DNA of 49,698 bases from a virus: positions 1 to 49,698 of IMG/VR virus record IMGVR_UViG_3300045988_135203; one strand, written 5' to 3'. The notes beneath the pieces were generated by a model that was given only the letters and a program-made list of their open reading frames with translations, had not been told where the DNA came from and did no database searches. This document shows positions 610 through 40,267 of this stretch, one piece after another. Positions within the stretch are counted from its first letter, which is position 1. Every line of letters begins with the position of its first letter. Both the position numbers and the translations under genes were made by a program.

Positions 610-681
610 CGAGCCAACGGGGAATCGAACCCCGACCTCTGGAGAGACAGTCCAGCACACTAGCCATTATGCTACAAGCCC
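610..681 (-). tRNA. tRNA-Asp (anticodon GUC)
   Basis: Anticodon arm CTGGA-CTGTCTC-TCCAG, T-arm CGGGGTTCGATTCCCCG. The acceptor stem has one U-U mismatch and several G-U pairs. Confidence 0.7.
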
Positions 682-792
682 TTAACAAGACAGGTTTAAT
701 TTCGCACTTAAAATCCTCAATTTTACGCTGTATTAGAATTTAAAATTTTGCAGTTCCTGTCTTTAATTTATATATTTATTATATAATATTTT

Positions 793-1098: not shown

Positions 1099-1203
1099 TC
1101 CTATTCTGTTTATAATTGAGGGGCCTGCTTACCCCCTCATGCAGCAGTTAGTCCCTGCTTGCCGAAGCCAGTTATTTAAGGGAACTGTTAGATTGCACCC
1201 TGA

Positions 1204-1285
1204 TGGGGGAGGTAGGACTCGAACCTACGATGTTTCTTTGTCACGGTTTTACAGACCGCTACCCTCGCCACTAGGTTACTCCCCC
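1204..1285 (-). tRNA. tRNA-Tyr (anticodon GUA), type II with long variable arm
   Basis: Acceptor GGGGGAG/CUCCCCC, anticodon arm GCGGT-CTGTAAA-ACCGT, long variable arm, T-arm GTAGGTTCGAGTCCTAC. Confidence 0.75.
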
Positions 1286-1594
1286 ATAAACATATTAAGT
1301 TGGACAGCTATCCTTTAGAAGACGATGCTTCTGGAGCCTTAATAACACCCCAAGTAGTTTACCATCTCTACAAACTACCAAAGATTAGAACAATTTTCTC
1401 GTTTTGTTCATTAACGTCAGATTTTTCAGCTACGAGGTATCTGAAACATACCTTTCATTAAATTCATCCCAAGTGAAGATTTATGCCTTCAACTTAAAGA
1501 TATAGACTGTGTACTTTAGTCTGCCATTCACTTCACTCTCTGAATGGTCAACCCGTAATCGAGGCTTCGGGCGCTACCCGTGCATGTCGATTAA

Positions 1595-1665
1595 CACGCC
1601 CTCAAGGAATCGAACCCTGATTAACCGGGTTGGAGCCGGCTGTAATACCATTATACCAAAGGCGC
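1595..1665 (-). tRNA. tRNA-Trp (anticodon CCA)
   Basis: Anticodon arm GCCGG-CTCCAAC-CCGGT, T-arm CAGGGTTCGATTCCTTG, D-loop TATAATGGTAT. Confidence 0.7.
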
Positions 1666-1900
1666 AAACATGATAGACACCACACTCTCTATCACTCTCA
1701 TACTTAGCAATGAGTTTTCTGCAACGTGGAAGCTATACTCACTTTTTGTCAAGCTAAAGAAGTACAAGTAAAAAGCTACATTTACCTACATTCAGGTGTA
1801 GTTCCCTCTTCAACTACAAAGCCAAGTCATATAAAATGTATAGACTAAACATTCTATATCTAATAAATTTAAAGACGTCCTCAATATATTAGATATATAA

Positions 1901-1971
1901 TTGCGGAGACGGGATTTGAACCCGTGTCTCTAGGTTATGAGCCTAGCAAGGAGCCACTCCTCTACTCCGCA
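1901..1971 (-). tRNA. tRNA-Met (anticodon CAU; elongator Met or Ile2-lysidine type cannot be distinguished)
   Basis: Acceptor UGCGGAG/CUCCGCA, anticodon arm CTAGG-CTCATAA-CCTAG, T-arm CACGGGTTCAAATCCCGTC. Confidence 0.7.
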
Positions 1972-2065
1972 CTATTTTCAAGACACCTTTTGTCAACCGA
2001 AATTTTATTTTGAAGGTCTATTATATTGCTGAAAAGTGTCTTTTTTATTTATTTTGTATATATAT

Positions 2066-2094
2066 ATTATATATTATTTTTTATAAAAAATCAA
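2066..2094 (-). promoter_or_regulatory. Class A promoter upstream of the tRNA cluster
   Basis: Conserved module AAATTGATTTTTTATAAAAAATAATATATAATATATAC. Confidence 0.55.
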
Positions 2095-2242
2095 TTTAAA
2101 ATTTTTAACCAAGACATTTGTAAAGGTTTTGTTTTTACGGTTACTAAACTCTTTACTCTAAACCTACCGTCAATCATCAACCCAAATGATAATCTTTTTC
2201 TTGTTAGAAAATATTTGCTGTTTAAATGTCTTTTATATACTT

Positions 2243-2271
2243 ATTATATATTATTTTTTATAAAAAATCAA
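2243..2271 (-). promoter_or_regulatory. Class A promoter (tandem with 2066-2094)
   Basis: TTGATT-N17-TATAAT with conserved AT-rich spacer. Confidence 0.55.
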
Positions 2272-2273
2272 TG

Positions 2274-2621
2274 TTAAGAAAATGACCAGCCATTTTTCTT
2301 AATAATTCTCATCATATTATCCCTACCAACAGGATTCATAGAATGAATATGAAATGTAGCATCAATTTGCCATCCATCTACATGCTGCTTTTCTTCAAGC
2401 CATTCAAGAAACTTAATATAATCTCCCCCAAACATCCGCATTTCACCCGCATCATGGTCAAGACTTACATCTCCAAGATATAAACATCTTTTTCCAGAGT
2501 AAGAAAGCTCTGTCTCCGCTGTACAAGCAATAATCGCCGCATATACACTTCTAAGCCATGTATAATCAGAAGGTGCGGGTCTCACATCATCAATCCACAG
2601 ATTTGTCTTCATACTCTCCAT
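2274..2621 (-). CDS. Hypothetical protein
   Basis: 115-aa ORF. A class A promoter lies downstream of its stop and the gene is tightly packed with 2590-2865. Confidence 0.55.
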   Translation of the reverse strand: MESMKTNLWIDDVRPAPSDYTWLRSVYAAIIACTAETELSYSGKRCLYLGDVSLDHDAGEMRMFGGDYIKFLEWLEEKQHVDGWQIDATFHIHSMNPVGRDNMMRIIKKNGWSFS

Positions 2622-2865
2622 CCTCTTTCATAACTTCAATTATACCCTGATGTATAAGATAACGTTCCCATTTTTCTGGATGCTCATTACTTCCTACTAA
2701 AGTAGTAAGCATTTCTGGGGTGTATAATCCTAAATCTCCAGGAGGATTAATACTAAATATATTTGCCGCTTTCTTTACTGCAGCTCTGAGCATTCTTACT
2801 TTTTTCTCTAAGTGAAGAATTTGTGTATACAAAACTTCTTCTCTCGTCTTGGTTAAATCACTCAT
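2590..2865 (-). CDS. Hypothetical protein
   Basis: 91-aa ORF directly preceded by a class A promoter at 2898-2926. Confidence 0.6.
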   Translation of the reverse strand: MSDLTKTREEVLYTQILHLEKKVRMLRAAVKKAANIFSINPPGDLGLYTPEMLTTLVGSNEHPEKWERYLIHQGIIEVMKEDGEYEDKSVD

Positions 2866-2897
2866 TTTTATTTACCCTCTCTTAACTTTCTATAAAT

Positions 2898-2926
2898 ATT
2901 ATATTATAATTTTTATAAAAAATCAA
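2898..2926 (-). promoter_or_regulatory. Class A promoter for 2590-2865
   Basis: TTGATT-N17-TATAAT. Confidence 0.55.
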
Positions 2927-2939
2927 TTAAGAATAAAAG

Positions 2940-3488
2940 CTACTTTTCTTTCCATTGATGGCGTCTTTGGGATTTCCAGTTTCGCTCTCTAACACGATAC
3001 CAATCATCCCACCAACCATCAGGATAATCATTTCTACTACCACGGTTAAATTCCTTAAATTCAGGATTATCATACATTGCCGCAACCTGTCTAATTTTTC
3101 GTGGGCGTGTATGTGGACCACCTTTGTGTTTATGAATTCCTTCTACTGGTTCTCTGCGGAACTCACCACGATAAGTTTTGTTTTTCTTATACCTTTTCCA
3201 CCTCTGCTCAGAAGTTTCTAGTGGAAGATTTTTATACTTCTCTACCCAAAACAAATGTGCAGATTTGTAATAAATGTGCGGGTCAATCTGACGACCATAA
3301 CCATCATAATACTGGTCATTCATGCGGTCATTAACCAGAAAACCCCAAACATCTTTACGAAAACCTCTTGCTAAGTATCCAATAAATTCTCTTTCATTTT
3401 TAGCAATGCGCTGAATAGTTAAGTGCATATAGAATTTATTAAAACTATAACAATAAATTTCTTCTTTAGGCATTTCAATATTGTACAT
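2940..3488 (-). CDS. Hypothetical basic Trp/Tyr-rich protein
   Basis: 182-aa ORF with strong coding composition. Nested antisense ORFs were discarded. Confidence 0.6.
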   Translation of the reverse strand: MYNIEMPKEEIYCYSFNKFYMHLTIQRIAKNEREFIGYLARGFRKDVWGFLVNDRMNDQYYDGYGRQIDPHIYYKSAHLFWVEKYKNLPLETSEQRWKRYKKNKTYRGEFRREPVEGIHKHKGGPHTRPRKIRQVAAMYDNPEFKEFNRGSRNDYPDGWWDDWYRVRERNWKSQRRHQWKEK

Positions 3489-3541
3489 AGTAATCTCCTT
3501 TTTAAATTAAATTATTGGATAACTACCATATATCAAACTCC

Positions 3542-3745
3542 TTATGGACGAAGTATGCCTTCATCTGTCACTTCATATACATCCAAAATCTTCGTATAAT
3601 AACCTTGGAAATTTGGATATTTTTCTTTTACAAACTGAACTGCTTTATCCGCATCTGTAGTAAGTACAAAATTACACATAGCATACGTTTTCAGCATTTC
3701 ATCATCAAGGTCAAAAATAACTTTAAAAACTTTCATATTTATCAA
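3542..3745 (-). CDS. Hypothetical small protein
   Basis: 67-aa ORF with GAGG-type RBS context. Confidence 0.45.
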   Translation of the reverse strand: MINMKVFKVIFDLDDEMLKTYAMCNFVLTTDADKAVQFVKEKYPNFQGYYTKILDVYEVTDEGILRP

Positions 3746-3752
3746 CCTCCAA

Positions 3753-3874
3753 TGCCCAGAGAAGGACTTGAACCTTCACTCTAATAATAGAAACAGATTT
3801 ACGTCGCTAAATTGCAGTATAAGTATTTTACAAAACTTTTTAGCTTCTGCCGCGTCTACTTCCGCCATCTGGGC
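3753..3874 (-). tRNA. tRNA-like gene with ~45-nt insertion in the anticodon region (intron-containing, type II or pseudo-tRNA)
   Basis: Perfect acceptor GCCCAGA/TCTGGGC and T-arm GAAGGTTCAAGTCCTTC with a 3-bp D-stem. The anticodon stem GCAGA/TCTGT is separated by an AT-rich insert, and a canonical cloverleaf is only possible if this is spliced or ignored. Confidence 0.35.
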
Positions 3875-4134
3875 TTAATGATTATTCGATTGCCAATCAG
3901 GTTATCACCCTAGAAGTTTATGGACCTCCTCTTGGTGTATAAAGTCATACTCGCGGGCATTTTTAATTTCCTCTTATCTTTTTGTCCTTTATACGCTTCC
4001 AAAACCAAGCCAGGATTTACTTGCTTTACAGAAAACATTACTTTTCCAACCCTTGCAACAAAGTCACTAACGCTCTTTTAAACACTCGAATAAGCTTCAC
4101 CTATTATATTTATAGCTAGCATATCACTATAAAA

Positions 4135-4211
4135 TCCGGATTCTGGGATTCGAACCCAGGACAAACACCGCTTATAAGGCGGCCGCTCTAACCTGACTGA
4201 GCTAAACCCGG
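4135..4211 (-). tRNA. tRNA-Ile-like (anticodon UAU), 7-nt variable loop
   Basis: Typical TAGCTCAGTCAGGTTAGAGC D-arm, anticodon arm GCCGC-CTTATAA-GCGGT, T-arm CTGGGTTCGAATCCCAG. The acceptor starts with C. Confidence 0.6.
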
Positions 4212-16897: not shown

Positions 16898-17315
16898 TTA
16901 ATTCATCAATAACATAACATTCATTTTCTTTAATATTATTGAAATTAACATTTAAAGCAGAAATTCCAAAAATGATGTTATCATCAGTTCCAAGAGGTAA
17001 CTTAGCAAGATATAAGTAACTATCTTTGCGATAAATGTATTTGTATCCCTGAGTATAATTTTTTAAAAAATCGTGTTCAAGTTTAGTGATAAGTGGAACA
17101 TATGGGGCTGAAGCCCATTCCAAAGCACGATATTTACAATTAAAAAGCATTTGATGCGGATTTGTACGAACGCAATCAAATAAACAATTATCGCATTCGA
17201 TTGCTTCGCAAGGTGTTAATGTCCTATCTTTTTTATCAATGGCAAAACCGCTGCTACTAAAGTTAGTTATTTTAAGAATTTCATCTTTGTAATGCTCAAA
17301 ATTAGTTTTCATCAT
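16860..17315 (-). CDS. Cys-rich hypothetical protein
   Basis: 151 aa with CEAIECDNCLFDC...C motifs. Confidence 0.55.
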   Translation of the reverse strand: MMKTNFEHYKDEILKITNFSSSGFAIDKKDRTLTPCEAIECDNCLFDCVRTNPHQMLFNCKYRALEWASAPYVPLITKLEHDFLKNYTQGYKYIYRKDSYLYLAKLPLGTDDNIIFGISALNVNFNNIKENECYVIDELIAAHTTINCEKE

Positions 17316-17884
17316 GCATCAAAGTCTTTTCCGAAATGTTTTGCCAAAAGGAAAAGGCTAAATCTTGGGATACAAGCATAGTTTTTAAAAGTAGGACGGT
17401 CGATTTCACGTAATACAAAATCAAGGTCAAACCAGCTAACTGCCGCAATTTCCTCTTCCTGAATTTTAAAGTTGTTTATTTTTGTATCTTCTGGAACTTC
17501 ATAAAGATAAACATATGCAAGTTCTTTATCAATAAATTTTTTACCATGAAATACTTCAGTATAATCAATATTCATTGTTGAAAGAAATTTAAGCTTATCT
17601 TTATCAGTTTTGATACCGAGCTCTTCTGAAAGTTCTCTTAATGCTCCCTGCTCTGTTGTTTCACCTGCTGGAACATGACCTGCGCATGAAGTATCCCATT
17701 GTCCCGGGTAAGAATCTTTATTGAATGCGCGCAGCTGTAAGAGAATTTGCGGTTTTCCATTTTTGTATCTTATAACCCATACATGGGAAGTATGATGGCG
17801 GTATCCTTTAGCATGACATACATCTCTTGGTGCGGTTTTACCTGTTAAACGTCCAAATTCATCAATAATATCGAAATATTCCAT
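17312..17884 (-). CDS. NUDIX hydrolase
   Basis: Canonical Nudix box GHVPAGETTEQGALRELSEELGI (G-x5-E-x7-REUxEExGU). The start is trimmed to MEYFDII, which has a GGAGGA RBS. Confidence 0.85.
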   Translation of the reverse strand: MEYFDIIDEFGRLTGKTAPRDVCHAKGYRHHTSHVWVIRYKNGKPQILLQLRAFNKDSYPGQWDTSCAGHVPAGETTEQGALRELSEELGIKTDKDKLKFLSTMNIDYTEVFHGKKFIDKELAYVYLYEVPEDTKINNFKIQEEEIAAVSWFDLDFVLREIDRPTFKNYACIPRFSLFLLAKHFGKDFDA

Positions 17885-17888
17885 ATAA

Positions 17889-18128
17889 TTAATCCTCCGG
17901 CATAAAATAAGTTTTTGTATCTCGTTTGTAAGCATCCATAACCGCACAAAAGACTTGTTTCGCTCTTTCAAGAGTTTTATAACTTCCTAATTTGCGGCTA
18001 TTATACATCATATATTCTCCAACGGGGAAAGCTAAAATCTTACTTTCCCCATCGCCCCCGTTAATTACACTTATTGTAATCTGTTCTATTGGAACTGATG
18101 TTGTTTTTTTCTGATTTATTATAAGCAT
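17889..18128 (-). CDS. Hypothetical protein
   Basis: 79-aa ORF whose 3' end contains the RBS of the NUDIX gene. Confidence 0.5.
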   Translation of the reverse strand: MLIINQKKTTSVPIEQITISVINGGDGESKILAFPVGEYMMYNSRKLGSYKTLERAKQVFCAVMDAYKRDTKTYFMPED

Positions 18129-20678: not shown

Positions 20679-20764
20679 TTAATATACCGAAGGTATAGGC
20701 GATAGCCATTTCCTTTTCCTTTTCTTTATTATGATGAAAACTTCGTTTTCATCTTTATGTATAT

Positions 20765-20793
20765 ATAATATAATATTTTTTATAAAAAATCAA
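20765..20793 (-). promoter_or_regulatory. Class A promoter for 20280-20678
   Basis: TTGATT-N17-TATTAT. Confidence 0.5.
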
Positions 20794-20825
20794 TGGGGTA
20801 AGATGAATGGCAATAAAGAGAATGG

Positions 20826-20997
20826 TAAATGGCGATTTGGCCTTGAAATTTTTAAATAGAATCATAATAAATGGTGAATTGCCCTTGAAATTTTTAAGTT
20901 AAATTGTCCTAAATTACGATTTGGCTTTTAATTTTTTAAATAGAATCATAGTAAATGGCAAAATGCCCTTGAAATTTTTAAGTTAAATTGTCCTAAA
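20826..20997. repeat. Tandem direct repeats (about 2 x 86 bp, each of two ~43-bp sub-repeats)
   Basis: AAATGG(C/T)GA(A/T)TTG(G/C)CCTTGAAATTTTTAA(A/G)T(A/T)(G/A)AAT... recurs four times, alternating with TAGAATCATA(A/G)TAAATGG and GTTAAATTGTCCTAAAT. Confidence 0.65.
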
Positions 20998-21039
20998 TCT
21001 TAAATAAATCATTTAAGATAGTGATTTGCCCTGCGCGGC

Positions 21040-21165
21040 CCTCGGCCAAGCACTCCCAAATTAAGTTCTTCCTCTCCATAAACCGAAATAAAAATATTAA
21101 TATGGGCGAAGCCAAGCACTCACATTTCTAATTCTTCCTTTCTGAAAACCGAAATAAAAATATTC
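21040..21165. repeat. Two ~57-bp direct repeats
   Basis: G(C/A)(C/A)AAGCCAAGCACTC(C/A)CA... T(T/A)CTTCCT(C/T)TC(C/T)... AACCGAAATAAAAATATT occurs twice. Confidence 0.6.
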
Positions 21166-21481
21166 TATTACTAGGGGACCCATTTCAAATATTCAAATGA
21201 AAAATTCAAAACCTCAAGGAACAAAGCAAAAATTGAACTGAAACAAAAATCTCTCAACTGCTGCTTAAGAACAAGCTTTAATAGGAAGTGATTAAATTTC
21301 ATCTACCCTATATATTTGTAATAAAATTAATCATTTTTCCTTAGACTCGTGGTGTCATAAAAACAAGAATCAGCAAAGTGGTTAAGAAAATTTCGTCTCA
21401 TATATAATGGGTGAGTGCAAAAAGTTAACCACTTTGTTAAAATCTCTTATAGAAGTCTAAAGGCTGGCCTTTAGGTAAACC

Positions 21482-21535
21482 ATGGACACTTTTTGTGTAT
21501 ACTATATATACATAGTATACACAAAAAGTGTCCAT
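21482..21535. repeat. Perfect 24-bp inverted repeat with 6-nt spacer
   Basis: ATGGACACTTTTTGTGTATACTAT atatac ATAGTATACACAAAAAGTGTCCAT, about 55 bp upstream of the plus-strand promoter of 21668-22354. Confidence 0.8.
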
Positions 21536-21588
21536 CCTTTGCAGAGGGTCCAGAGGATTATTGCTTACTTCAACTTTGGACAAAAGGA

Positions 21589-21617
21589 TTGAACTAGTTT
21601 AAAATAAATTATATAAT
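21589..21617 (+). promoter_or_regulatory. Plus-strand sigma70-type promoter for 21668-22354
   Basis: TTGAAC-N17-TATAAT just downstream of the 24-bp palindrome. Confidence 0.5.
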
Positions 21618-21667
21618 ATATAGAGGATAAAACCTCAATAAAATTTTTTAGAAAGGAAAAATACAAA

Positions 21668-22354
21668 ATGAATCAAGTGAATTTAAGTAGAACTGCATTA
21701 AATAAAAAATGCGGTTTAACGTCAAAACAATGGACTCGTTATCACGATAGTATTATTACTTATTTAAGTGAATACTTTAAAGTATTTGAAGAACACAAAA
21801 CAGAAGGAAATCTTTATTATTATGTAATTGGCTATGATAACGAATGGCCAGAAATCCCAAAATTTAGTATTAGAAATTTTAACAAACAACAGCGTGAACA
21901 AGATTATGAAGAATTTGTTAAAGGTAATTTACCAAATGAATTTGCACCAGAAAGTAAAGCTAGAATGTCAAGAGTTGCCATTAGAGAATTTGGTAATAGA
22001 AAATATAGACATTGTAGTAGTCAAGCAGTTGCAGAGCGTTATGTTGGTCCAGCTATGGAAAAGTTTGGAGAAAAAAGCGGTGTTAAAGTTTGGGTAAATC
22101 ATAAAACTTATACTAAATTAGATAAAGAACAACATGAGTTTTTAAAAGAATGTTTTGAAAGATTTGATTTACCAGAAGCTAAAAGAGCTAAGATATTAGA
22201 CCAAATTTGTTCAGCTATTCAATGTGGTGAAACAAATGTTCAAAGTCTTATTCCACTTAATACTTATCAACAAGTATTAGATGCTTTTAAACAGCGCTAT
22301 GATTTTATTCCAATAGTAGTAGATGAATGGAGAGCTAAAGAAGCAGCATGGTAA
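21668..22354 (+). CDS. Putative DNA-binding regulator or replication-initiator-like protein (N-terminal HTH-like segment); lone plus-strand gene
   Basis: 228 aa with the N-terminal segment LSRTALNKKCGLTSKQWTRY, its own plus-strand promoter TTGAAC-N17-TATAAT at 21589-21617, and flanking related repeats. Confidence 0.6.
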   Translation: MNQVNLSRTALNKKCGLTSKQWTRYHDSIITYLSEYFKVFEEHKTEGNLYYYVIGYDNEWPEIPKFSIRNFNKQQREQDYEEFVKGNLPNEFAPESKARMSRVAIREFGNRKYRHCSSQAVAERYVGPAMEKFGEKSGVKVWVNHKTYTKLDKEQHEFLKECFERFDLPEAKRAKILDQICSAIQCGETNVQSLIPLNTYQQVLDAFKQRYDFIPIVVDEWRAKEAAW

Positions 22355-22461
22355 TGTAGGGGAGAGATTTATTCTCTCCCTTTTATTTTTGCGGCGACGC
22401 AGGTTCATCACTCTTATAGCTGGAATTAAAGTAGAATAGGGGCAGTAAAATCTTATATAAA

Positions 22462-22506
22462 TTATATATAGTATTCACAGGAAGTGTACCTATTCGTCAG
22501 AGGGTC
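22462..22506. repeat. Direct-repeat copy of the right arm of the 21482-21535 palindrome plus CAGAGGGTC
   Basis: AGTATTCACAGGAAGTGTACCTATTCGTCAGAGGGTCTCGATT resembles 21514-21556 AGTATACACAAAAAGTGTCCATCCTTTGCAGAGGGTCCAGAGGATT. Confidence 0.6.
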
Positions 22507-22599
22507 TCGATTAAATCTACGGAGCGGCAGCAGGTGCGCGAATAAAATTATCTTTTTTTAATATTATAACATAATATAAATAATTAATCAATAATTCTC

Positions 22600-22888
22600 A
22601 TTACCCTCGCCCGCATTAAAGAACGAGTCTCCGTTTTGGCTTAAAGAAACCGCAGGTTTCTTTAGCCTAATGAGGAGACAAATTTGGGGCGCGCCCTTTT
22701 TAAAGGGCGCAAGGGCTTCTTCCCGCAATTCACTTTACTCATGGATAAGAGCCATATGCTAGGTAATGCGGCCGGGTGCGCGGTTTCGGGAAAATTAGGC
22801 GCCATATGAAAACCGCTAGAAGTAGAAAAAAATCGCCATATGGGGTTCGCGAGCGGGAATTCGGGCCTTGCCTGTCGTCGGCGGCCCG
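22600..22888 (-). ncRNA. Candidate ~290-nt GC-rich structured noncoding RNA
   Basis: A GC-rich island in an AT-rich genome driven by a consensus promoter. Nested helices include GUCUCC...GGAGAC enclosing GGCUAAAGAAACC-UGC-GGUUUCUUUAAGCC, GGGCGCGCCC/AAGGGCGC, and CAUAUG repeated three times. Only Arg-rich ORFs without an RBS are present. Confidence 0.4.
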
Positions 22889-22890
22889 CC

Positions 22891-22920
22891 ATTATATCAC
22901 ACTTATCATTCTTTTGTCAA
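22891..22920 (-). promoter_or_regulatory. Minus-strand promoter of cassette 1 driving the GC-rich ncRNA candidate
   Basis: TTGACA-N17-TGATATAAT. Confidence 0.55.
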
Positions 22921-23048
22921 GCCCTTTTCTGCATTTAATTTCGATTCAGCAATTTGCACAAATCTAACCTTCAAAATTCGTCAAATTGCACAAACCGCAA
23001 AAATGCACAAAAAAGAGAGCAAATCCGCTCTCAATTTTGTTTATTATT

Positions 23049-23348
23049 TTAAAAAATGTAAGTTGCGTATAAAATACAATCAGCTACTGGTTCTGTCTGA
23101 TTATTTACCGTAGTGGCAAATGCAACAGCCACCGCGTAAATATCACATCCAGGAGAATCGAACACATGGTCACATTCAACCTCAAAATCAAATTTTTCAT
23201 TATCTTCTGGAATATATTCTTTTCCAACTTCTGAGATAACATCTTCAAATGACTCATCGTTTTCATTTATCTCTTTCCAACAGTCATCTCCCTCACTCCA
23301 AAATCCTCTTTTAATTAACATCTTTTCCAGATAATCTGCAAAACTCAT
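23049..23348 (-). CDS. Acidic hypothetical protein
   Basis: 99 aa with promoter TTGACT-N17-TATACT at 23380-23408. Confidence 0.55.
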   Translation of the reverse strand: MSFADYLEKMLIKRGFWSEGDDCWKEINENDESFEDVISEVGKEYIPEDNEKFDFEVECDHVFDSPGCDIYAVAVAFATTVNNQTEPVADCILYATYIF

Positions 23349-23927: not shown

Positions 23928-24302
23928 TCATTCCTCAACAAGTGTAAAATAAGCTCTACGTTTTTCAACAACTCTATCAACTTTACCCTCTTTATAAAGG
24001 GCGGTAACAAGAGAAGTAACACGCTGATTAGTAAGTTCCGCAAGGTCTGGAACGGTTTTCATCATTTCAGATACAGTCTGTTTGTCAACTGTTTTGAGAT
24101 GAGCAAGGATTTTGACCTTGAGTTCCTCATTTTCTACCTGAGTGGCGGTAGGTTTTTTATTTGCGGAAGATTTTTTGTTTACCTGTGCAAGCATTTTCTG
24201 AAGCTTTTCAACAACCTCATCATACTGGTTATCTTCTTTCAGAACCTCGATTGCAGTTTCCAGTGCCATAGCGTTTGTCATTTTTTTGTTTGTCATAATC
24301 AT
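23928..24302 (-). CDS. Winged-helix-like protein, paralog family 1 (with 25693-26061 and 29228-29608)
   Basis: Shares N-terminal MTNAMALE.A.EVLKE and C-terminal ELTNQRVTSLVTALYKEGKVDRVVEKRRAYF (ArsR/MarR-like wing). Confidence 0.65.
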   Translation of the reverse strand: MIMTNKKMTNAMALETAIEVLKEDNQYDEVVEKLQKMLAQVNKKSSANKKPTATQVENEELKVKILAHLKTVDKQTVSEMMKTVPDLAELTNQRVTSLVTALYKEGKVDRVVEKRRAYFTLVEE

Positions 24303-25284: not shown

Positions 25285-25442
25285 TTCGTTTACCTCTCTT
25301 TCATTTGATACATTAAGTATACCATGAGCGGAGTAGAAATGCAAGTAGTAATATTGCACAAAGATGCGGCGAATTTTTTGTGCAATGTGCTGACTGGAGA
25401 ATTTTGGGAAATTTTGCGGTAAAAATTTGTGCAATTTTACTA

Positions 25443-25471
25443 TTGACAAATTTTGTGTCGTGTGGTATAAT
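25443..25471 (+). promoter_or_regulatory. Plus-strand (antisense-oriented) promoter of cassette 2
   Basis: TTGACA-N17-TGGTATAAT. Confidence 0.6.
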
Positions 25472-25477
25472 GATGAA

Positions 25478-25592
25478 TTCGGCCTAGCACAGTCGTGCGC
25501 CGGCCGCTCAAAAGTCAAGATGTAATTTTACACAAAAATAATTTTCGTCAAATTGCACAAAAAAGAAAGAGTCTGAATATTCAGACTCTTTC
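25478..25592 (+). ncRNA. Candidate ~115-nt antisense/small RNA of cassette 2
   Basis: Bounded by a consensus promoter and an intrinsic terminator, with a conserved 5' GC hairpin. Confidence 0.4.
25565..25592 (+). terminator. Intrinsic terminator of the cassette 2 RNA
   Basis: AAAGAGTCTGAATATTCAGACTCTTT. Confidence 0.5.
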
Positions 25593-25639: not shown

Positions 25640-25690
25640 GAAGAGGGGTGAGAGGGAATCGAACCCTCTCGAACAACCGTTCCCCCTGTG
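25640..25690 (-). ncRNA. tRNA T-arm/acceptor-like minihelix immediately after stop of 25693-26061
   Basis: GAGAGGGTTCGATTCCCTCTC (7-bp stem with a canonical GGTTCGATTCC T-loop) flanked by GGGGG...CCCC. There are no D or anticodon arms. Confidence 0.3.
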
Positions 25691-25692
25691 GC

Positions 25693-26061
25693 TTACTCTA
25701 CAAAGAAGTAAGCCTTTCTTTTCTCAACCTCTCTCTGGATTTTTAAATCTTTAACAAGAGCGGTCAGCAGAGAAGTGATTCTCTGGTTTGTGAGTTCCGC
25801 AAGCTCTGGAACCTCTTTAGCAAGCTCTGTTGCTGTGAATCTCTTTTCGGATTCTGTAAGGAAGTTTACAATGATTTCTTTCAGCTTTTCATTTTCTTCC
25901 TGAGTAGCTGTTTTCTTTGTAGAAGATTTCTTCTTTTCAAAACCCTCTTTGATTTTTTCAAGCTTCTCAACCAGTTCAACAGAACCGTTGTTTTCTTTTA
26001 CAACCTTGATTGCCATTTCCATTGCTACTACGTTTGTAAGTTTGTTTGTCATACTTATCAC
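25693..26061 (-). CDS. Winged-helix-like protein, paralog family 1
   Basis: 122 aa carrying ELTNQRITSLLTALVKDLKIQREVEKRKAYF, with a class B promoter at 26091-26119. Confidence 0.65.
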   Translation of the reverse strand: MISMTNKLTNVVAMEMAIKVVKENNGSVELVEKLEKIKEGFEKKKSSTKKTATQEENEKLKEIIVNFLTESEKRFTATELAKEVPELAELTNQRITSLLTALVKDLKIQREVEKRKAYFFVE

Positions 26062-28539: not shown

Positions 28540-28637
28540 TATACAAAATAACCAAAAGTATAAAGCAATTTTTGTGCGGTTTGCCGATTGGTAGAATTTT
28601 GGGATTTTCTAGGCGTTATTTTTGTGCAAAATGTCTA

Positions 28638-28667
28638 TTGACAAATAGTTGCTTCGTGTGTTATAAT
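28638..28667 (+). promoter_or_regulatory. Plus-strand promoter of cassette 3
   Basis: TTGACA-N18-TATAAT. Confidence 0.55.
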
Positions 28668-28673
28668 TGAAGT

Positions 28674-28795
28674 TCGGGCCTAAGCGCACGCTGCCGGCCC
28701 GCCGATTTGTCAAGATGTAATTTTGCACAAAGATTCAGCTAAAACTTTGTGAAAACCGCACAAAAAACGCCGAATTAAAAATTCAGCGTTTTGCA
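28674..28795 (+). ncRNA. Candidate ~120-nt small RNA of cassette 3
   Basis: Promoter-to-terminator unit with a conserved GC hairpin. Confidence 0.4.
28762..28795 (+). terminator. Intrinsic terminator of the cassette 3 RNA
   Basis: AAAAAACGCCGAATTAAAAATTCAGCGTTTT. Confidence 0.5.
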
Positions 28796-28806
28796 CAAAA
28801 ATTAAA

Positions 28807-29227: not shown

Positions 29228-29608
29228 TTATTTTGCAAAAAAGTATGCTTTGCGTTTTTCAACCATTCTGTCAACTTTGCCTTCACTGCAAAGGGAAGTT
29301 ACAAGAGAAGTTACACGCTGATTTGAAAGTTCTTTCAATTCTTCAACTTCTTTCATCAGCTCAGAAACAGTAAGTCCATTGCCCGTATCCACAAGGTATT
29401 CAACAATTTTTTCTTTTAAGTGTTCGTTTTCAAGCTGAGTTGCTGTTGGCTTACGATTTGCGGAAGATTTTTTGTTTACCTGTACAAGCATTTTGTCAAG
29501 TTTCTCGATAACCTCTGTATACTTCTCTACATCAGTTTCTTTCAGAACCTCAAGTGCGATTTCCAGTGCCATAGCGTTTGTCATTTTTTTGTTTGTCATA
29601 CTTATCAA
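29228..29608 (-). CDS. Winged-helix-like protein, paralog family 1
   Basis: 126 aa carrying MTNAMALEIALEVLKE ... ELSNQRVTSLVTSLCSEGKVDRMVEKRKAYF. Confidence 0.65.
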   Translation of the reverse strand: MISMTNKKMTNAMALEIALEVLKETDVEKYTEVIEKLDKMLVQVNKKSSANRKPTATQLENEHLKEKIVEYLVDTGNGLTVSELMKEVEELKELSNQRVTSLVTSLCSEGKVDRMVEKRKAYFFAK

Positions 29609-30584: not shown

Positions 30585-30756
30585 GAACTTTTTTAACTTT
30601 TTTGTAAGTTTTTTTATTTGCTTTCTTGTCTCTCTCTTCCTTACAAGTATTATAATACCACAAGCCACTAAAGATTGCAAGGATTATTTTTAAAAAAAAT
30701 TGCACAAAATAGATGGTTAATTTTTGTATAAAATGACCAATAGAAAAAGTGTACAA
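30562..30756 (-). CDS. Doubtful small ORF overlapping operator repeats and a promoter
   Basis: 64 aa, hydrophobic N-terminus. It reads through TTGTGCAA repeats and the class B promoter of the next gene. Confidence 0.2.
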   Translation of the reverse strand: MYTFSIGHFIQKLTIYFVQFFLKIILAIFSGLWYYNTCKEERDKKANKKTYKKVKKVLDKPLHW

Positions 30757-30866
30757 AGATTAAGGTGCGGTTTGTCATTTTTTTGGTAATCCTGCACAAA
30801 GATATTTTTCATCACATCGCACAATTTCGGGAATTTTTTTGTTATTATTTTTGTCTATTTTGCCTA

Positions 30867-30895
30867 TTGACAAAAGTTGCTCCCTGTGGTATAAT
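30867..30895 (+). promoter_or_regulatory. Plus-strand promoter of cassette 4
   Basis: TTGACA-N17-TGGTATAAT. Confidence 0.6.
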
Positions 30896-30943
30896 GGAAT
30901 TTCGGGCCTTGGCGTAAGTGAAGCGCTCGCCTGCGGCCCGCCA

Positions 30944-30972
30944 ATTTTATCACCTTTTGGAAAGTTTGTCAA
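30944..30972 (-). promoter_or_regulatory. Minus-strand promoter of cassette 4, face-to-face with 30867-30895
   Basis: TTGACA-N17-TAAAAT about 50 bp from the plus promoter, so the transcripts overlap across the GC hairpin. Confidence 0.5.
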
Positions 30973-30987
30973 GTAATAAAATTGCAC

Positions 30988-31018
30988 AAAAAAGAGGGCT
31001 TAAAGCCCTCTTTATTTT
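30988..31018. terminator. Bidirectional intrinsic terminator in cassette 4
   Basis: AAAAAAGAGGGCTTAAAGCCCTCTTTATTTT. Confidence 0.65.
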
Positions 31019-33379: not shown

Positions 33380-33529
33380 TTTATTTACCCCTCTTCCTTT
33401 ATCTTGATTATAGTATAGCATGGTTACGGGAAAATGTCTATAGGCAAATTGCACAAAGATTTCGCTGTAAAATAGTTGAATTTCTCTGTTTTGCACAAAA
33501 ACCGGCCGCAGCGCTTGTCGCCGGCCGGC

Positions 33530-33558
33530 CATTTTATCACACTTCTTCATTTCTGTCA
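33530..33558 (-). promoter_or_regulatory. Minus-strand promoter of cassette 5
   Basis: TTGACA-N17-TGATAAAAT. Its leader contains the GC hairpin and TTGTGCAA repeats and runs into 33155-33379. Confidence 0.5.
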
Positions 33559-33573
33559 AGTAGTAAAATTGCA

Positions 33574-33608
33574 CAAAAAAAGAGCTGAAATTTCAGCTCT
33601 TTTTTTTT
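33574..33608. terminator. Bidirectional intrinsic terminator in cassette 5
   Basis: AAAAAAAGAGCTGAAATTTCAGCTCTTTTTTTTT. Confidence 0.65.
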
Positions 33609-35905: not shown

Positions 35906-35935
35906 TTGACAAACTGCGGCGACCTGTGGTATAAT
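35906..35935 (+). promoter_or_regulatory. Plus-strand promoter of cassette 6, followed after about 10 nt by a terminator
   Basis: TTGACA-N18-TGGTATAAT. Confidence 0.55.
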
Positions 35936-35949
35936 TAGTCAGGGCAGCA

Positions 35950-35978
35950 GGCGACCATAGCGGTCGCCCCTTTCTTTT
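35950..35978 (+). terminator. Terminator of the cassette 6 mini-transcript
   Basis: GGCGACCATAGCGGTCGCC then CCTTTCTTTT. Confidence 0.5.
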
Positions 35979-37335: not shown

Positions 37336-37510
37336 TAGGTAATATTGCACAAAGATTAATTATTATTTTTGTGCAACATGCTGTTGTGCAATGTGACGAA
37401 TTTTGGGAAATGAACTAAAATATTTTTGTGCAAGTTTTTGCTTGACAAATTGTTGTGTCTCGTGTTATAATTGAAATTAGGGCCTGCGCCTGCGTCTACG
37501 GCCCGAGGAT
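37320..37510. promoter_or_regulatory. Regulatory cassette 7
   Basis: TTGCACAAA, TTTGTGCAA twice, TTGTGCAA and GAATTTTGGGAAATG, then promoter at 37443-37471 and hairpin AGGGCCTGCGCCTGCGTCTACGGCCCG. Confidence 0.45.
37443..37471 (+). promoter_or_regulatory. Plus-strand promoter of cassette 7 pointing towards the homing-endonuclease region
   Basis: TTGACA-N17-TATAAT followed by the AGGGCC...GGCCCG hairpin. Confidence 0.55.
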
Positions 37511-39105: not shown

Positions 39106-39401
39106 CTTATAATTACCGTTCCATGCTTTCCTTCTTTTCTCAACCTCTCCAAAACTGGATGGCAGGAATTTTTTTCATTCATAAATACAATAGCAAAATC
39201 AAGTTCTTTAATATAATCATTAAATGCGCCAAAAAAATATTTTTTGCCGGAACCATTATTTTCTGCCCATTTATCTCCCAAAGAATTGGGAGAACACACT
39301 ATATTAAATAAATATGTCCCCTTTATTTCAATAAGCTCATTTAATCTTTTGTCCAAAAGGTCATAATCATCAAGTGTGCCTCCAATTATTCCTACATTCA
39401 T
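39102..39401 (-). CDS. SLOG/DUF2493-like Rossmann-fold protein (YpsA/DprA-like)
   Basis: VGIIGGT ... LGDKWAENNG ... ELDFAIVFMNE ... GTVII pattern typical of DUF2493 SLOG domains. Confidence 0.5.
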   Translation of the reverse strand: MNVGIIGGTLDDYDLLDKRLNELIEIKGTYLFNIVCSPNSLGDKWAENNGSGKKYFFGAFNDYIKELDFAIVFMNEKNSCHPVLERLRKEGKHGTVIIR

Positions 39402-40267
39402 GCGATTGGCTCAATAAAAATTAACTTATCAATATAATCTCTATCCGCACCTTTGAAAATAGGAATTTTATAATCTATTTTCCATTTGCGGCGAACAATT
39501 ATTCTTTCACCAATTTGTTCTCCAAAATAAACATTTGGCTCTTTAATTGTTTCTTTAATTGTTTCTTTTTCTTCTATTTTGATACATGCGGTACCGCGTT
39601 TACATGGAATTGTAAAGTCATTCCAATTAATTCCACATTGAGTCATTAGCATATCTTGAATATCATTACAAGTTTTATCTTTAAGTTTGGCATGTGAAAA
39701 ACAAGCTTGTCCCACCATTTGAATACTATTCCGCGTTGCATCCAATTGCCGCCAATAAATAAGATTAGTTACTTCTTCTTTTGGAATATTAAAACATCTT
39801 GCGTCAAACATTGCTCCTTTTTCTGCGGCATTTACATATCTTTCAATAAGCCTTTTATTTCCCTCTATAAGAGGGTCATGAGTCGAATTATATTTAATTA
39901 TATTCTCAGAAAAATATTTATTAAAAGCCATTGTTGCCATAGAAGCTGATACGGAAGCCATTTTCTGAACCTCATAATTAAACCAAGCCTCTGAGGTTAA
40001 CTTTTGGTAATCAGTTAAAATTAAAGTAATTTCATCTGATTGAGTATATCCAAAAATACAACCCTGAATATTTTCACAAAGATACTTCATTGTCCTTTGC
40101 ATCGTATCCATTAATACAGGATCAAATGGTTTCTGAAAGCCTCGTGTAAAAGTATGAAAAGCTTTTCCATCAAGCCTAATAGCTACTGGCATGCGGCGAA
40201 GTAATTGTGTTTTTGCGGGATTTTCATAAAAATCTTTCATTCTTGCGGCAAGTTCACTATTATCCAT
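39398..40267 (-). CDS. Thg1-like protein (tRNA-His guanylyltransferase family 3'-5' nucleotidyltransferase)
   Basis: VAIRLDGKAFHTFT, YTQSDEITLIL and IYWRQLDATRNSI match the Thg1/TLP core motifs (RLDG-x-FH-x-F, YGQSDE, WRQ-D). Confidence 0.75.
   Translation of the reverse strand: MDNSELAARMKDFYENPAKTQLLRRMPVAIRLDGKAFHTFTRGFQKPFDPVLMDTMQRTMKYLCENIQGCIFGYTQSDEITLILTDYQKLTSEAWFNYEVQKMASVSASMATMAFNKYFSENIIKYNSTHDPLIEGNKRLIERYVNAAEKGAMFDARCFNIPKEEVTNLIYWRQLDATRNSIQMVGQACFSHAKLKDKTCNDIQDMLMTQCGINWNDFTIPCKRGTACIKIEEKETIKETIKEPNVYFGEQIGERIIVRRKWKIDYKIPIFKGADRDYIDKLIFIEPIA

Follow-up and report, generated by a model that had tools for sequence, protein, structure and literature searches.

The window, that is, the whole 49,698-nt stretch of viral DNA that was analysed, contains a GC island at 22618-22890 on the minus strand, in which the GC content is about 50% as opposed to about 32% in the phage. 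The sequence-only reading of this DNA had described the segment as GC-rich in an AT-rich genome, and this is confirmed by a count in 200-nt windows, which gives a GC content of 0.495 at 22600-22799 and 0.525 at 22700-22899 compared to 0.22-0.44 elsewhere in the window. The tRNA genes of the same phage have a GC content of 0.50-0.58, close to that of the island. The phages that carry this element are large, Firmicute-type phages of the human gut. The features of the locus are listed in Table 1.

Table 1. Features of the RNA locus and of its flanks, in the direction of transcription
Feature	Positions in the window	Strand	Remarks
Intrinsic terminator of the upstream 99-aa early gene (23049-23348)	23015..23032	(-)	Stem GAGAGCGGATTTGCTCTC, then TTTTTTGTGC
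Three TTTGTGCAW boxes upstream of the RNA promoter	22954..23011	(-)	Presumed regulator sites
Promoter, sigma-A/sigma-70-type	22891..22920	(-)	TTGACA 22920-22915; 18-nt spacer with TG (extended -10); TATAAT 22896-22891
5'-terminal GC hairpin GGGCC-GCC-GACGACA-GGC-AA-GGCCC	22863..22887	(-)	RNA positions 4-28
Variable C-rich linker	22848..22862	(-)	RNA 29-43; mean pairwise identity 0.847
Most conserved block AACCCCAUAUGGCGAUUUUUUUCUACUUCUAGCGG	22813..22847	(-)	RNA 44-78; carries the first CAUAUGGC repeat
Candidate hairpin GCGG-u-UUUC / GAAACCGC	22780..22816	(-)	RNA 75-83 with 104-111
Hypervariable patch	22762..22772	(-)	RNA 119-129; three allele types: GCCGCAUUACC, GCCCCACRCCC, GGACUGCUGCC
Candidate hairpin GCAUAUGG-loop-CCAUGAGU	22737..22759	(-)	RNA 132-154; carries the third CAUAUGGC repeat
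Hairpin GCGCCCUU-UAAA-AAGGGCGC	22691..22710	(-)	RNA 181-200; stem invariant
Terminator-type two-tier hairpin GUCUCC..GGCUAAAGAAACC-UGC-GGUUUCUUUAAGCC..GGAGAC with weak U-rich tail UCGUUCUUU	22618..22679	(-)	Presumed 3' end
Fast-evolving spacer AAUGCGGGCGAGGGUAAUGAG after the terminator	22597..22617	(-)	At least 7 variants, no matching change elsewhere; absent in variant B
Neighbouring unit, not part of the RNA	22503..22591	(-)	Second, AT-rich promoter TTGATT-17-TATAAT, 22563-22591

The promoter is located directly upstream of the RNA and scores 12/12 against the consensus extended -10 promoter. Its earlier assignment as a minus-strand consensus promoter at 22891-22920 is correct, except for the proposed 'N17-TGATATAAT' spacing: 15 nt precede TGATATAAT. 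In the 19 distinct upstream sequences compared, TATAAT and TGTG never vary, TTGACA is altered in one, and about 8 positions of the spacer are variable. Because 29 perfect promoters, including this one, are found between 22 and 41.5 kb, the promoter of the RNA alone is not distinctive in this genome. The TTTGTGCAW motif occurs 18 times in the window (2.5 copies are expected), and all copies cluster at promoters followed by the hairpin cassette described below. The terminator of the 99-aa gene marks the upstream edge of the conserved module, and the homologs have a terminator at the equivalent position.

The locus is noncoding. It contains only short, Arg/Pro-rich ORFs, the longest of which comprises 76 codons (22662-22892, minus strand), while a 63-aa ORF is found on the plus strand. 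The absence of ribosome-binding sites from the Arg-rich ORFs, already remarked upon in the sequence-only reading, was verified for all of them. A coding homolog with a conserved frame, which would have spoken for a gene, was looked for and not found: a search of 5.8 billion proteins gave no homolog of the 76-aa ORF, the gap of 600-700 nt is left without a gene call on 13 public contigs, and 1-nt and 2-nt indels among the homologs disrupt every reading frame. It is extremely improbable that the locus encodes one or more small proteins, be it by the 76-aa or 63-aa ORF or by the 7-codon AUGGCGAUUUUUUUCUACUUCUAG. Such ORFs do exist, and the sole substitution in the 7-codon ORF (UUC to UUU, in L014) is synonymous, but a Shine-Dalgarno sequence is missing upstream of each, the 76-aa ORF begins within the -10 box, its frame and the other long one are broken by the indels, and protein homologs and gene calls are both lacking.

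Homologs of the locus were found at 28 loci with 21 distinct sequences, all of them on human-gut phage contigs and at the identical genomic position. The 21 sequences belong to one phage clade. The element is present in every relative examined, even where the neighbouring 99-aa protein is only 61-65% identical. The homolog search included a 20-mer scan of metagenomes, from which ten further contigs (L008, L009, L011-13, L015, L016, L018, L022 and L025) were set aside as chance matches; they have 23 nt in common with the 5' hairpin, in the same sense, inside an AAA-ATPase-like coding gene. L006, L007 and L028-L054, from scans of the collections, are chance matches as well. Blastn searches against 50,697 GenBank phages and 72,556 plasmids (PLSDB) returned no match or only AT-rich noise, and a literature search for the RNA sequence itself found no paper.

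The RNA resembles none of the families in Rfam. When the whole window was searched with the 4227 models of Rfam 15, among them 6S, tmRNA, SRP, RNase P, pRNA, GOLLD, ROOL, HEARO, riboswitches, ribozymes, RsaE and LhrC, only 7 tRNAs exceeded the gathering thresholds. Nothing meaningful was found on the RNA at E <= 10 in the region 22350-23060, and nothing at the RNA locus at E <= 0.5 in the region 20.6-41.2 kb. This comparison, which had been proposed as a check of novelty, left the RNA without a family at the gathering thresholds and at E <= 10 alike. A GC-rich phage noncoding RNA of this length would be suitable for a ribozyme or a retron-like msr-msd, both of which had been suggested, but such an identity is highly improbable and its retron part is largely refuted. 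No ribozyme, intron or retron-type family is matched, ribozymes not even at E <= 10. A reverse transcriptase domain is absent from the 30 window proteins and one locus protein that were scanned against Pfam, and the gene downstream, which varies from phage to phage, is convergent. Each end of the RNA, 5' and 3', forms a hairpin of its own, and the two are predicted to make only a 3-bp contact (1-3 with 176-178), with no long pairing of the a1/a2 type. A template/variable repeat pair of a diversity-generating kind (DGR) was also considered and rejected, as the similarity extends over only 8-15 nt and a reverse transcriptase is lacking.

The helix GUCUCC..GGAGAC enclosing GGCUAAAGAAACC-UGC-GGUUUCUUUAAGCC, pointed out earlier, was recovered as a hairpin at 22627-22679 with a folding energy of -24.9 kcal/mol (z = -6.4), followed by the U-rich tail at 22618-22626. 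This form, variant A, has a poor U-tract, and the window's own hairpin was not called a terminator by the scanner. Five phages carry variant B, which has a different sequence and the same architecture, with a clean U5 tail in four of them; it is called terminator-like by the scanner and four of its pairs have compensatory changes. The 3' end of variant A is most likely formed at the hairpin and its tail, at a somewhat uncertain position, to give an RNA of about 265-270 nt. This is more likely than the length of about 290 nt given before, which takes in the fast-evolving spacer past the terminator (22597-22617); the spacer is probably outside the functional RNA. The neighbouring unit further on has a conserved transcript start, UUCGCGCACCUGCUGCCGCUCC..AAUCGAGACC (22503-22542), and is shifted by about 1.2 kb or diverged in the variant-B phages.

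The next gene downstream is convergent in every arrangement, a 228-aa gene in the window and genes of 268-291 aa in others. Given that the genes downstream are convergent and vary from phage to phage, the RNA is a stand-alone unit and not a leader; a cis-regulatory leader or riboswitch is ruled out by the lack of a same-strand downstream gene. The proteins next to the RNA locus are ORFans with no informative match in Pfam, PHROG or PDB. A single-sequence AlphaFold model of one of them, the basic 132-aa protein, has a pLDDT of 39 and is unusable.

Transcription is predicted to start at about G5/G6, which would place the GC hairpin at the extreme 5' end of the RNA. That the transcript opens with a cassette hairpin had been anticipated, and the sequence is present exactly at 22856-22890, with no second copy when up to 3 mismatches are allowed. 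Behind other early promoters, near 25.5, 28.7, 30.9, 33.5 and 37.5 kb, stand looser paralogs, GGCGGGCC..GGCCCGAA; altogether, paralogous hairpins with a different inner sequence are placed directly after six other early promoters on either strand. The hairpin has a folding energy of -17.2 kcal/mol. Its pair 7:25 is changed from C-G to U-A in one sequence (L061), a compensatory change, and a C in the loop is replaced by U in five sequences. Stem-loops that stabilise the 5' end are known on early transcripts of Firmicutes and their phages (ermC, aprE, SP82 early RNA). The hairpin described here is likewise rich in GC, lies a few nucleotides from the transcription start and is repeated on several early transcripts. 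The likeness covers RNA positions 4-28 and not the body, and a stabilising effect of the phage hairpin is putative.

The body of the RNA, about 180 nt, is pyrimidine-rich. It has 8-11 C-runs and only 3-4 G-runs, so that most C-runs cannot pair within the molecule. The body in the window has 8 C-runs, compared to 4.2 +/- 1.5 in shuffled sequences, and 28 of 2000 shuffles reach 8. The linker drifts but always keeps a C-run (UUCCCGC, UUCCCAC, UUCGCCCCC, UUCUCCCCC, AUCCCGC or CUUCCCGC). One UCCC motif, at about position 33, is present in 20 of the 21 sequences, and another, at position 100, in all 21. Two long-range pairings of the C-runs, UUCCCGC (33-39) with GCGGGAA (165-171) and CGCCCGC (36-42) with the post-terminator GCGGGCG, were rejected for want of covariation. 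The octamer CAUAUGGC, with its internal palindrome CAUAUG, is present in three direct copies (22835-42, 22801-08 and 22751-58) within 92 nt and is absent elsewhere in the window. These copies had been taken for paired repeats of the type 'CAUAUGGCG/CGCCAUAUG'; they are not inverted repeats.

Conservation is unevenly distributed along the body. The block at 44-78, near-invariant in the 21 sequences, has a mean pairwise identity of 0.990, compared to 0.82 at the third codon positions of the neighbouring gene, and is predicted to be mostly single-stranded. The hairpin of 75-83 with 104-111 is plausible. Its 20-nt loop would contain the second CAUAUGGC repeat and a UCCC motif, and its variation is found in the bulge (position 79), in the loop and in one C-G to U-G change; L061 breaks four pairs. 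The hypervariable patch is enclosed in alignment columns 113-132, where the mean pairwise identity of 0.745 is below that of synonymous sites. In the candidate hairpin at 132-154, the loop reads CUCUUAU, CCUCUCU, CCUCUAU or CCCUUAU and the pairs change from U-G to U-A in two sequences, from G-U to G-C in four and from G-C to A-C in two. The GCGCCCUU/AAGGGCGC helix of the sequence-only reading was found again as the hairpin at 22691-22710, the loop of which is UAAA, UGAA or shortened to CC.

Folding of the whole molecule is unremarkable (z = -1.9 sense, -1.6 antisense), and the terminal hairpins alone stand out. Double changes are found in 5 of the 56 predicted pairs, and every one of these belongs to the 5' hairpin or the terminator; with a mean column identity of 91%, the sequences are very much alike for such a test. 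The middle helices have wobble-compatible single changes, some broken pairs and no compensatory changes. The description of the RNA as structured consequently applies to the two terminal hairpins, whereas the fold of the middle 180 nt, with its ordinary z-score, stays a computed one that compensatory changes do not support.

The RNA is under purifying selection, because its blocks are 93-99% identical between phages compared to 82% at the third codon positions of the adjacent 132-aa gene. Taken as a whole, the RNA is 89-99% identical, much like the neighbouring 132-aa and 228-aa genes, so that it is the block-wise comparison with synonymous sites that makes the case for selection. The same overall figures could be read as those of a functionless transcribed passenger, a piece of foreign GC-rich DNA lying behind an early-promoter cassette and conserved only through close kinship. 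The atypical GC content and the origin of all 21 sequences from a single clade fit such a passenger, which is nevertheless decidedly unlikely. The blocks are constrained (0.93-0.99 versus 0.82), while the linker, the patch and the post-terminator spacer drift freely; the element persists in all relatives examined, including those with a divergent 99-aa protein; and no source of the GC-rich DNA was found in phage, plasmid, genome and metagenome collections.

It is also unlikely, though a shade less so, that the locus functions as DNA or at the level of transcription, the RNA being irrelevant. It could be a promoter-terminator buffer at the junction of the leftward early genes with the rightward genes, an array of protein sites (CATATGGCG three times, CGCGCACC), or part of a replication origin or genome end. 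The locus does sit exactly where transcription converges, and it adjoins 1 kb of noncoding DNA that contains 42-bp repeats and a 64-nt palindrome. In variant A it is followed by an AT-rich stretch of 55 bp, its palindromic motifs read alike on either strand, the sense strand folds with no better z-score than the antisense strand, and the flanking genes are swapped among phages, as at a recombination hot spot. However, the conserved sequence of about 180 nt is non-repetitive and far exceeds the needs of an operator. One-sided changes in the helices are C/U and A/G, which keep G-U pairs on the sense strand only, and the terminator has been exchanged for a structurally equivalent one. The AT-rich stretch and the second promoter do not adjoin the locus in the variant-B phages. 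Across the genome, CATATG shows neither avoidance nor enrichment, and a restriction-site decoy was discarded on account of the lack of avoidance. An R-loop primer was dropped as well, since the RNA strand is rich in C and poorly suited to this function.

The GC-rich stretch has its own promoter and terminator, is conserved and cannot encode a protein, and for these reasons the element of about 265 nt is, with good probability, a discrete functional noncoding RNA gene. The novel minus-strand noncoding RNA unit proposed in the sequence-only reading is thereby upheld: no Rfam match and no conserved frame were found, promoter and terminator are conserved, and selection is purifying. Most likely it represents a new RNA family from a clade of large human-gut phages. 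Of the functions that had been offered, riboregulator and protein-sequestering RNA are live options.

The best explanation overall, to be held tentatively, is a free-standing RNA gene of about 265 nt that acts as a C-rich pairing RNA or sponge. Transcription by the sigma-A RNA polymerase of the host would set in at the perfect extended -10 promoter upon DNA entry, the RNA being the last unit of an early, host-takeover-like region. The 5' GC hairpin, common to other early transcripts, may protect the RNA against 5'-end-dependent decay in Firmicutes, and the long terminator hairpin would end it. The pyrimidine-rich body of about 180 nt between the two hairpins would display the C-runs, most of them unpaired, the two conserved UCCC motifs, the three CAUAUGGC repeats and the near-invariant, single-stranded 35-nt block. 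Being abundant, stable and multivalent, the RNA would then act in trans by pairing with G-rich stretches, typically Shine-Dalgarno regions, in host RNAs and possibly in phage RNAs. The promoter and terminator signals with their conservation, the noncoding nature, the purifying selection, the terminal hairpins and the C-run asymmetry are seen in the sequences themselves, whereas expression, exact ends, stability and the whole of the trans-acting mechanism are inferred; the specific C-rich base-pairing mechanism is, taken by itself, rather doubtful.

C-rich small RNAs of Firmicutes, such as RsaE/RoxS and LhrC, pair with G-rich Shine-Dalgarno regions. They have their own sigma-A promoter, end in a terminator hairpin and carry several C-rich or UCCC motifs in loops or linkers, an arrangement to which the phage RNA would correspond with its two conserved UCCC motifs, one of them in the predicted 20-nt loop, and its large excess of C-runs over G-runs; the exposure of these motifs is that of a predicted structure. 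The resemblance appears to be one of architecture and composition. Unlike these RNAs, which measure 90-115 nt, the RNA described here is phage-encoded and has about 265 nt, a length that counts against the pairing mechanism, and it matches neither RsaE nor LhrC in sequence or structure even at E <= 10. A search of the 50-kb window for targets by exact 11-mers, RNAduplex and reverse complements of the conserved blocks with <=3 mismatches revealed no extended complementarity, and the single-stranded segments pair with 58 phage translation-initiation regions no better than composition-matched shuffles do. The only strong duplex matches are to plus-strand transcripts of the paralogous cassettes, whose complementarity to the 5' hairpin simply follows from homology.

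Highly transcribed, promoter-driven putative noncoding RNAs without ribosome-binding sites have been reported in large Firmicute phages, namely the Listeria P100-like phage CKA15 (PMC12282133) and kayviruses (PMC10383478); the long noncoding RNAs of the kayviruses are reported to be GOLLD/ROOL-like and tRNA-adjacent (PMC10383478). The present RNA has in common with them a promoter that is early or strong, the lack of a ribosome-binding site, the putative noncoding nature and the origin from a big AT-rich Firmicute phage. It has no sequence similarity to any GenBank phage by blastn. Canonical terminators and UCCC motifs, both of which are present here, are reported to be missing from the CKA15 loci (PMC12282133), and the phage RNA, unlike those of kayviruses, is neither GOLLD/ROOL-like nor tRNA-adjacent.

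Instead of RNA, the target might be a protein. An early RNA that titrates or redirects a host protein by means of the CAUAUGGC copies, the C-runs and the invariant 35-nt block would be a decoy or sponge, in the manner of 6S RNA, CsrB/RsmZ or RNA anti-CRISPRs, and an RNA-binding regulator, a ribonuclease, RNA polymerase or a defence protein could be its partner. This is possible, with the chances clearly against it. The confinement of three CAUAUGGC copies to 92 nt of a 50-kb window and the near-invariance of the 35-nt block fit a specific macromolecular contact; the length of the RNA and its early-region position fit host takeover; and no RNA target was found in the window. On the other hand, there is no Rfam similarity to 6S, CsrB/Rsm, Y RNA or other protein-binding RNAs even at E <= 10, and no conserved gene for a partner protein travels along with the RNA, its neighbours being the ORFans mentioned above. 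The phage RNA is like 6S and other protein-sequestering RNAs in being a noncoding RNA, presumably abundant and stable, that could help the phage to redirect host machinery. It is unlike 6S in that a rod-like fold, a long irregular duplex with a central bubble, is missing; the ends do not pair and fold separately. None of its hairpins convincingly resembles the CRISPR repeats known to us (Cas12a, type I-C/III-A). With phi29 pRNA it has in common that it is a phage noncoding RNA, within the range of 170-270 nt, with a strong early promoter near one end of the early region, but the Rfam pRNA model is not matched, the phage analysed here packages by a large-terminase system related to those of Enterococcus and Geobacillus phages, and there is no sign of a role in packaging.

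The distribution of variable positions permits one more reading, which is improbable. The RNA might be a new early effector in which an invariant scaffold (the 5' hairpin and the blocks 44-112 and 133-181) presents the short, recombining, hypervariable patch 119-129 as a specificity element. The patch, with three allele types and changing faster than synonymous sites, would make the RNA a programmable decoy or guide directed at a host factor that varies, for example in RNA-based counter-defence.

To our knowledge, very few phage regulatory RNAs have a known function, and almost none of them come from uncultured large phages of the human gut. The locus described here is a well-delimited candidate of about 265 nt: it has a perfect early promoter and a terminator, it occurs in 21 natural variants, and its constrained and free positions are mapped. 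The shared cassette of promoter, TTTGTGCAA-box and GC hairpin suggests that a set of short early transcripts, both sense and antisense, is co-regulated; as far as we know, this set has been described by nobody so far. If the RNA has no phenotype, it would be merely another conserved intergenic RNA. Should it act on host translation, RNA decay or defence, the takeover of the host by Firmicute phages would gain an RNA layer.

RNA1, the putative noncoding RNA gene whose position 1 is window position 22890, is GC-rich in an AT-rich genome, as the sequence-only reading had noticed: the 270 nt after its promoter have 50-52% G+C, against 22-44% in the rest of the window. The seven tRNA genes of the phage are similar to it in composition (50-58% G+C). 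The proposed minus-strand consensus promoter is a 12/12 match with an extended -10 box, and only its spacer had been miscounted, by a few bases. It is not special within the phage genome; 29 perfect consensus promoters are found in the 22-41.5 kb region. Neither TATAAT nor the preceding TGTG differs among 19 distinct upstream sequences, in which TTGACA is altered once and the spacer varies at eight positions. The 35-nt cassette hairpin GGCGGGCCGCCGACGACAGGCAAGGCCCGAAUUCC at the 5' end folds (-17.2 kcal/mol), as does the nested two-tier hairpin GUCUCC..GGCUAAAGAAACC-UGC-GGUUUCUUUAAGCC..GGAGAC (-24.9 kcal/mol, z = -6.4), and the GCGCCCUU/AAGGGCGC pairing forms an additional hairpin. The CAUAUGGC elements, earlier taken for inverted repeats, are three direct copies, and the length of about 290 nt has to be reduced to 265-270 nt, the 3' end being probably at about 22618-22626. 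The sequence beyond it is a fast-drifting spacer.

The element is noncoding, and a peptide gene is the least likely of the explanations considered. Only short, Arg/Pro-rich ORFs occur in the segment, none with a Shine-Dalgarno sequence; the longest, 76 aa in length, has its start codon within the -10 box and no homologs among 5.8 billion proteins. On every contig the public annotation has no gene in the 600-700-nt gap that holds RNA1. The variants differ by a 2-nt indel (GGGAAGAAG vs GGGAAAG) and a 1-nt indel (CGCG-CACC vs CGCGCCACC); a frame-shifted stretch lies at RNA 32-45.

Exact-word scans baited with the 5' hairpin found RNA1 on three IMG/VR contigs, nine human-gut metagenome contigs and one MAG contig. 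To counter the bias of this bait, contigs were also gathered by way of proteins homologous to the 99-aa product encoded upstream (61-91% identity, 47 clusters). RNA1 is present in 13/13 of the loci so gathered that reach beyond the gene, including those in which the protein is only 61-65% identical. The total is 28 loci, all syntenic with the window, with 21 distinct sequences (alignment A3). No similar sequence was found in GenBank phages, PLSDB plasmids or the literature. Ten gut bacterial contigs (L008, L009, L011-L013, L015, L016, L018, L022, L025) share 23 identical nt (CGACGACAGGCAAGGCCCGAATT) with the 5' hairpin region, in the same sense within an AAA-ATPase-like coding gene (e.g. L009 1054-1080); this match, though longer than the 20-mer bait, is probably due to chance.

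The 3' hairpin occurs in two forms, variant A (that of the window, 16 sequences) and variant B (five sequences). Variant B, GCCUC..CAAAC..GGGAACC-GCA-GGUUCCC..GUUUG..GAGGC, followed by U5 in 4/5, aligns with variant A without gaps, keeps the two-tier architecture and is scored terminator-like on the RNA strand by a terminator scanner. In the phages that carry it a convergent gene ends exactly at the 3' hairpin, so that RNA1 cannot be the leader of any gene. Since variant B is combined with each of the three hypervariable-patch alleles (RNA 119-129), and flanking genes on both sides are exchanged among the phages, the RNA1 locus recombines as a module.

RNAalifold predicts 56 pairs, with 99% of the cells paired on A3. 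Both partners change in only five of them: one in the 5' hairpin (7:25, C-G to U-A, in the locus L061) and four in the terminator, supplied by variant B. In the predicted middle helices the changes are only C/U or A/G with the G-U wobble kept, and a few pairs are broken, among the closely similar sequences of A3 (91% mean column identity); L061 breaks four pairs of helix 75-83/104-111. The folding energy of the whole molecule is ordinary, the sense strand (z = -1.9) being no better than the antisense (z = -1.6). Because of this, and because double changes occur only there, the two terminal hairpins are counted as established; the predicted hairpins at RNA 132-154 and 181-200 are likely. In L061 (1159-1431) a copy of the segment ahead of the first CAUAUGGCG repeat (GCGAACCCC) stands in place of the one ahead of the second, which looks like conversion between repeats. 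In the same locus half of the upstream terminator is deleted and the 99-aa gene is truncated; the locus may be degenerating, or it may have been misassembled.

The overall identity of RNA1 to the window sequence (89-99%) is about that of two neighbouring genes, and the argument for selection rests on the block-wise pattern. Mean pairwise identities among 16 phages (see table), compared with third codon positions of the adjacent 132-aa gene, show that most of RNA1 changes at a much lower rate than synonymous sites. The linker and the patch are free, or possibly diversifying.

Features of the RNA1 locus and of the early region, with block-wise mean pairwise identities
Feature	Position	Strand	Remarks
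RNA1	22618-22890	-	
RNA1 promoter	TTGACA 22920-22915; TATAAT 22896-22891	-	18-nt spacer with TG; 12/12 match
5' cassette hairpin	22856-22890	-	
Additional hairpin	22691-22710	-	
Nested 3' hairpin	22627-22679	-	
Middle helices (RNAalifold)	RNA 75-83/104-111, 116-119/167-170, 124-126/159-161, 133-140/148-155, 182-189/194-201		
5' block	RNA 1-28		0.988
Linker	RNA 29-43		0.847
Block	RNA 44-78		0.990
Block	RNA 79-112		0.942
Patch	RNA 113-132		0.745
Block	RNA 133-181		0.928
132-aa gene	third codon positions		0.82
132-aa gene	codon positions 1+2		0.965
TTGACA-N17/18-TGnTATAAT promoters + GC hairpin (n=5)	25443-25515, 28638-28705, 30867-30942, 35906-35968, 37442-37500	+	antisense to early genes
Promoter + hairpin + U5	33505-33559	-	resembles promoter-proximal terminator
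TTTGTGCAW clusters	22954-23011, 25354-25561, 28621-28799, 30700-30990, 33449-33577, 37345-37433		
Second transcription unit	22355-22591	-	adjoins RNA1; promoter TTGATT-17-TATAAT

The body of RNA1 is pyrimidine-rich. Its C-runs (at least three C) number 8-11 and its G-runs 3-4, so that most C-runs must be unpaired; the eight of the window compare with 4.2 +/- 1.5 in shuffles, at least eight being reached in 28/2000. UCCC is found at about position 33 in 20/21 sequences and at position 100 in 21/21, the C-run of the linker is always kept despite sequence drift, and structure prediction leaves the most conserved stretch, AACCCCAUAUGGCGAUUUUUUUCUACUUCUAGCGG, largely single-stranded. Exposed C-rich motifs are a hallmark of the Firmicute pairing sRNAs RsaE/RoxS and LhrC, which RNA1 resembles in its excess of C-runs and its conserved UCCC. 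LhrC and its UCCC motifs are treated in PMC12282133. We infer that RNA1 is best read as a stable, abundant, early, trans-acting pairing RNA, whose exposed C-rich and U-rich segments would bind by base pairing to sites rich in G or in purines, probably on RNAs of the host. No extended complementarity to RNA1 was found in the 50-kb window, and its predicted binding to initiation regions of the phage itself is no stronger than that of shuffled segments. A protein-sequestering RNA or decoy, to which the three copies of CAUAUGGC and the invariant block point, is nearly as likely as a pairing RNA. A purely DNA-level role, a neutral passenger and a ribozyme or retron follow, each less likely than the one before.

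Near 25.5, 28.7, 30.9, 33.5 and 37.5 kb the 5' hairpin has less exact paralogs (GGCGGGCC..variable..GGCCCGAA), and a related one lies at 35.95 kb. Each starts within a few nucleotides of the point where a perfect promoter is predicted to initiate transcription; at 30.9 kb the hairpin is flanked by promoters converging from both sides. TTTGTGCAW boxes number 18 in the window, on both strands, against 2.5 expected, and are clustered only at the hairpin-cassette promoters, three of them upstream of RNA1. The paralogous hairpins and promoters together with the clustered boxes assign the RNA1 promoter and 5' hairpin to a regulatory module that is present in several copies; the 240 nt 3' of the hairpin occur at the RNA1 locus only. 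Taken together, the cassettes point to short early transcripts of both sense and antisense orientation, or to a device for attenuation. The box is probably the operator of a regulator, for which paralogous proteins of about 124 aa (23928-24302, 25693-26061, 29228-29608) are candidates; their C-terminal part may be winged-helix-like, on a weak Pfam hint only.

The source phage is large and AT-rich, with related contigs of up to 150-180 kb. Its large terminase shows 49-61% protein identity to the counterparts in an uncultured human-gut phage, 134-142-kb Enterococcus phages and Geobacillus virus E3. A distant terminase relative, L070 (OQ749652.1, Phage Phass-1; 44% aa identity), is placed by NCBI in the 'Caudoviricetes code 15 clade', in which the TAG stop codon is recoded; the window genes read well under the standard code, without a suppressor tRNA. 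The window also encodes seven tRNAs (Lys, His, Asp, Tyr, Trp, Met and Ile-UAU; 185-4211, minus strand), a NUDIX hydrolase (17312-17971) and a Thg1-like 3'-5' nucleotidyl transferase (39398-40267, minus strand; Pfam Thg1, E = 1.5e-30). At 25640-25700 (minus strand), directly 3' of the stop of a 122-aa gene, GAGAGGGUUCGAUUCCCUCUCACCCC resembles a tRNA T-arm and acceptor 3' strand; no tRNA is called there by ARAGORN or Rfam.

From 23 to 40.6 kb small minus-strand genes, each preceded by a consensus TTGACA/TATAAT promoter, have the layout of a host-takeover early region, of which RNA1 is the final unit. It is followed by a convergent gene of 228 aa, a repeat-bearing noncoding stretch of 1 kb and then genes under a second, AT-rich promoter class. 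The noncoding stretch (20700-21660) contains four 42-bp tandem-like repeats (20826-20993) and a near-perfect 64-nt palindrome (21477-21540), and could be an origin or other DNA-level site. The second transcription unit, directly 3' of RNA1, has an AT-rich promoter and a conserved start UUCGCGCACCUGCUGCCGCUCC..AAUCGAGACC followed by a 200-nt noncoding stretch (folding z = -2.4). Its CGCGCACC..CUGCUGCC is similar to RNA1 108-130 of the gamma allele, and in the locus L020 its 9-mer CTGCTGCCG is inverted to CGGCAGCAG.

The proposal of a novel noncoding RNA holds in that no Rfam family matches, and RNA1 belongs to no RNA family described so far. Putative stand-alone noncoding RNA genes have lately been noticed in large Firmicute phages, such as Listeria phage CKA15 (PMC12282133) and the kayviruses (PMC10383478); these are of the same kind as RNA1 but have no sequence in common with it. 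RNA1 represents a new family within a kind of RNA already known, of interest in being well delimited, with its constrained and free positions clearly mapped, and in being a member of a promoter/box/hairpin cassette system.
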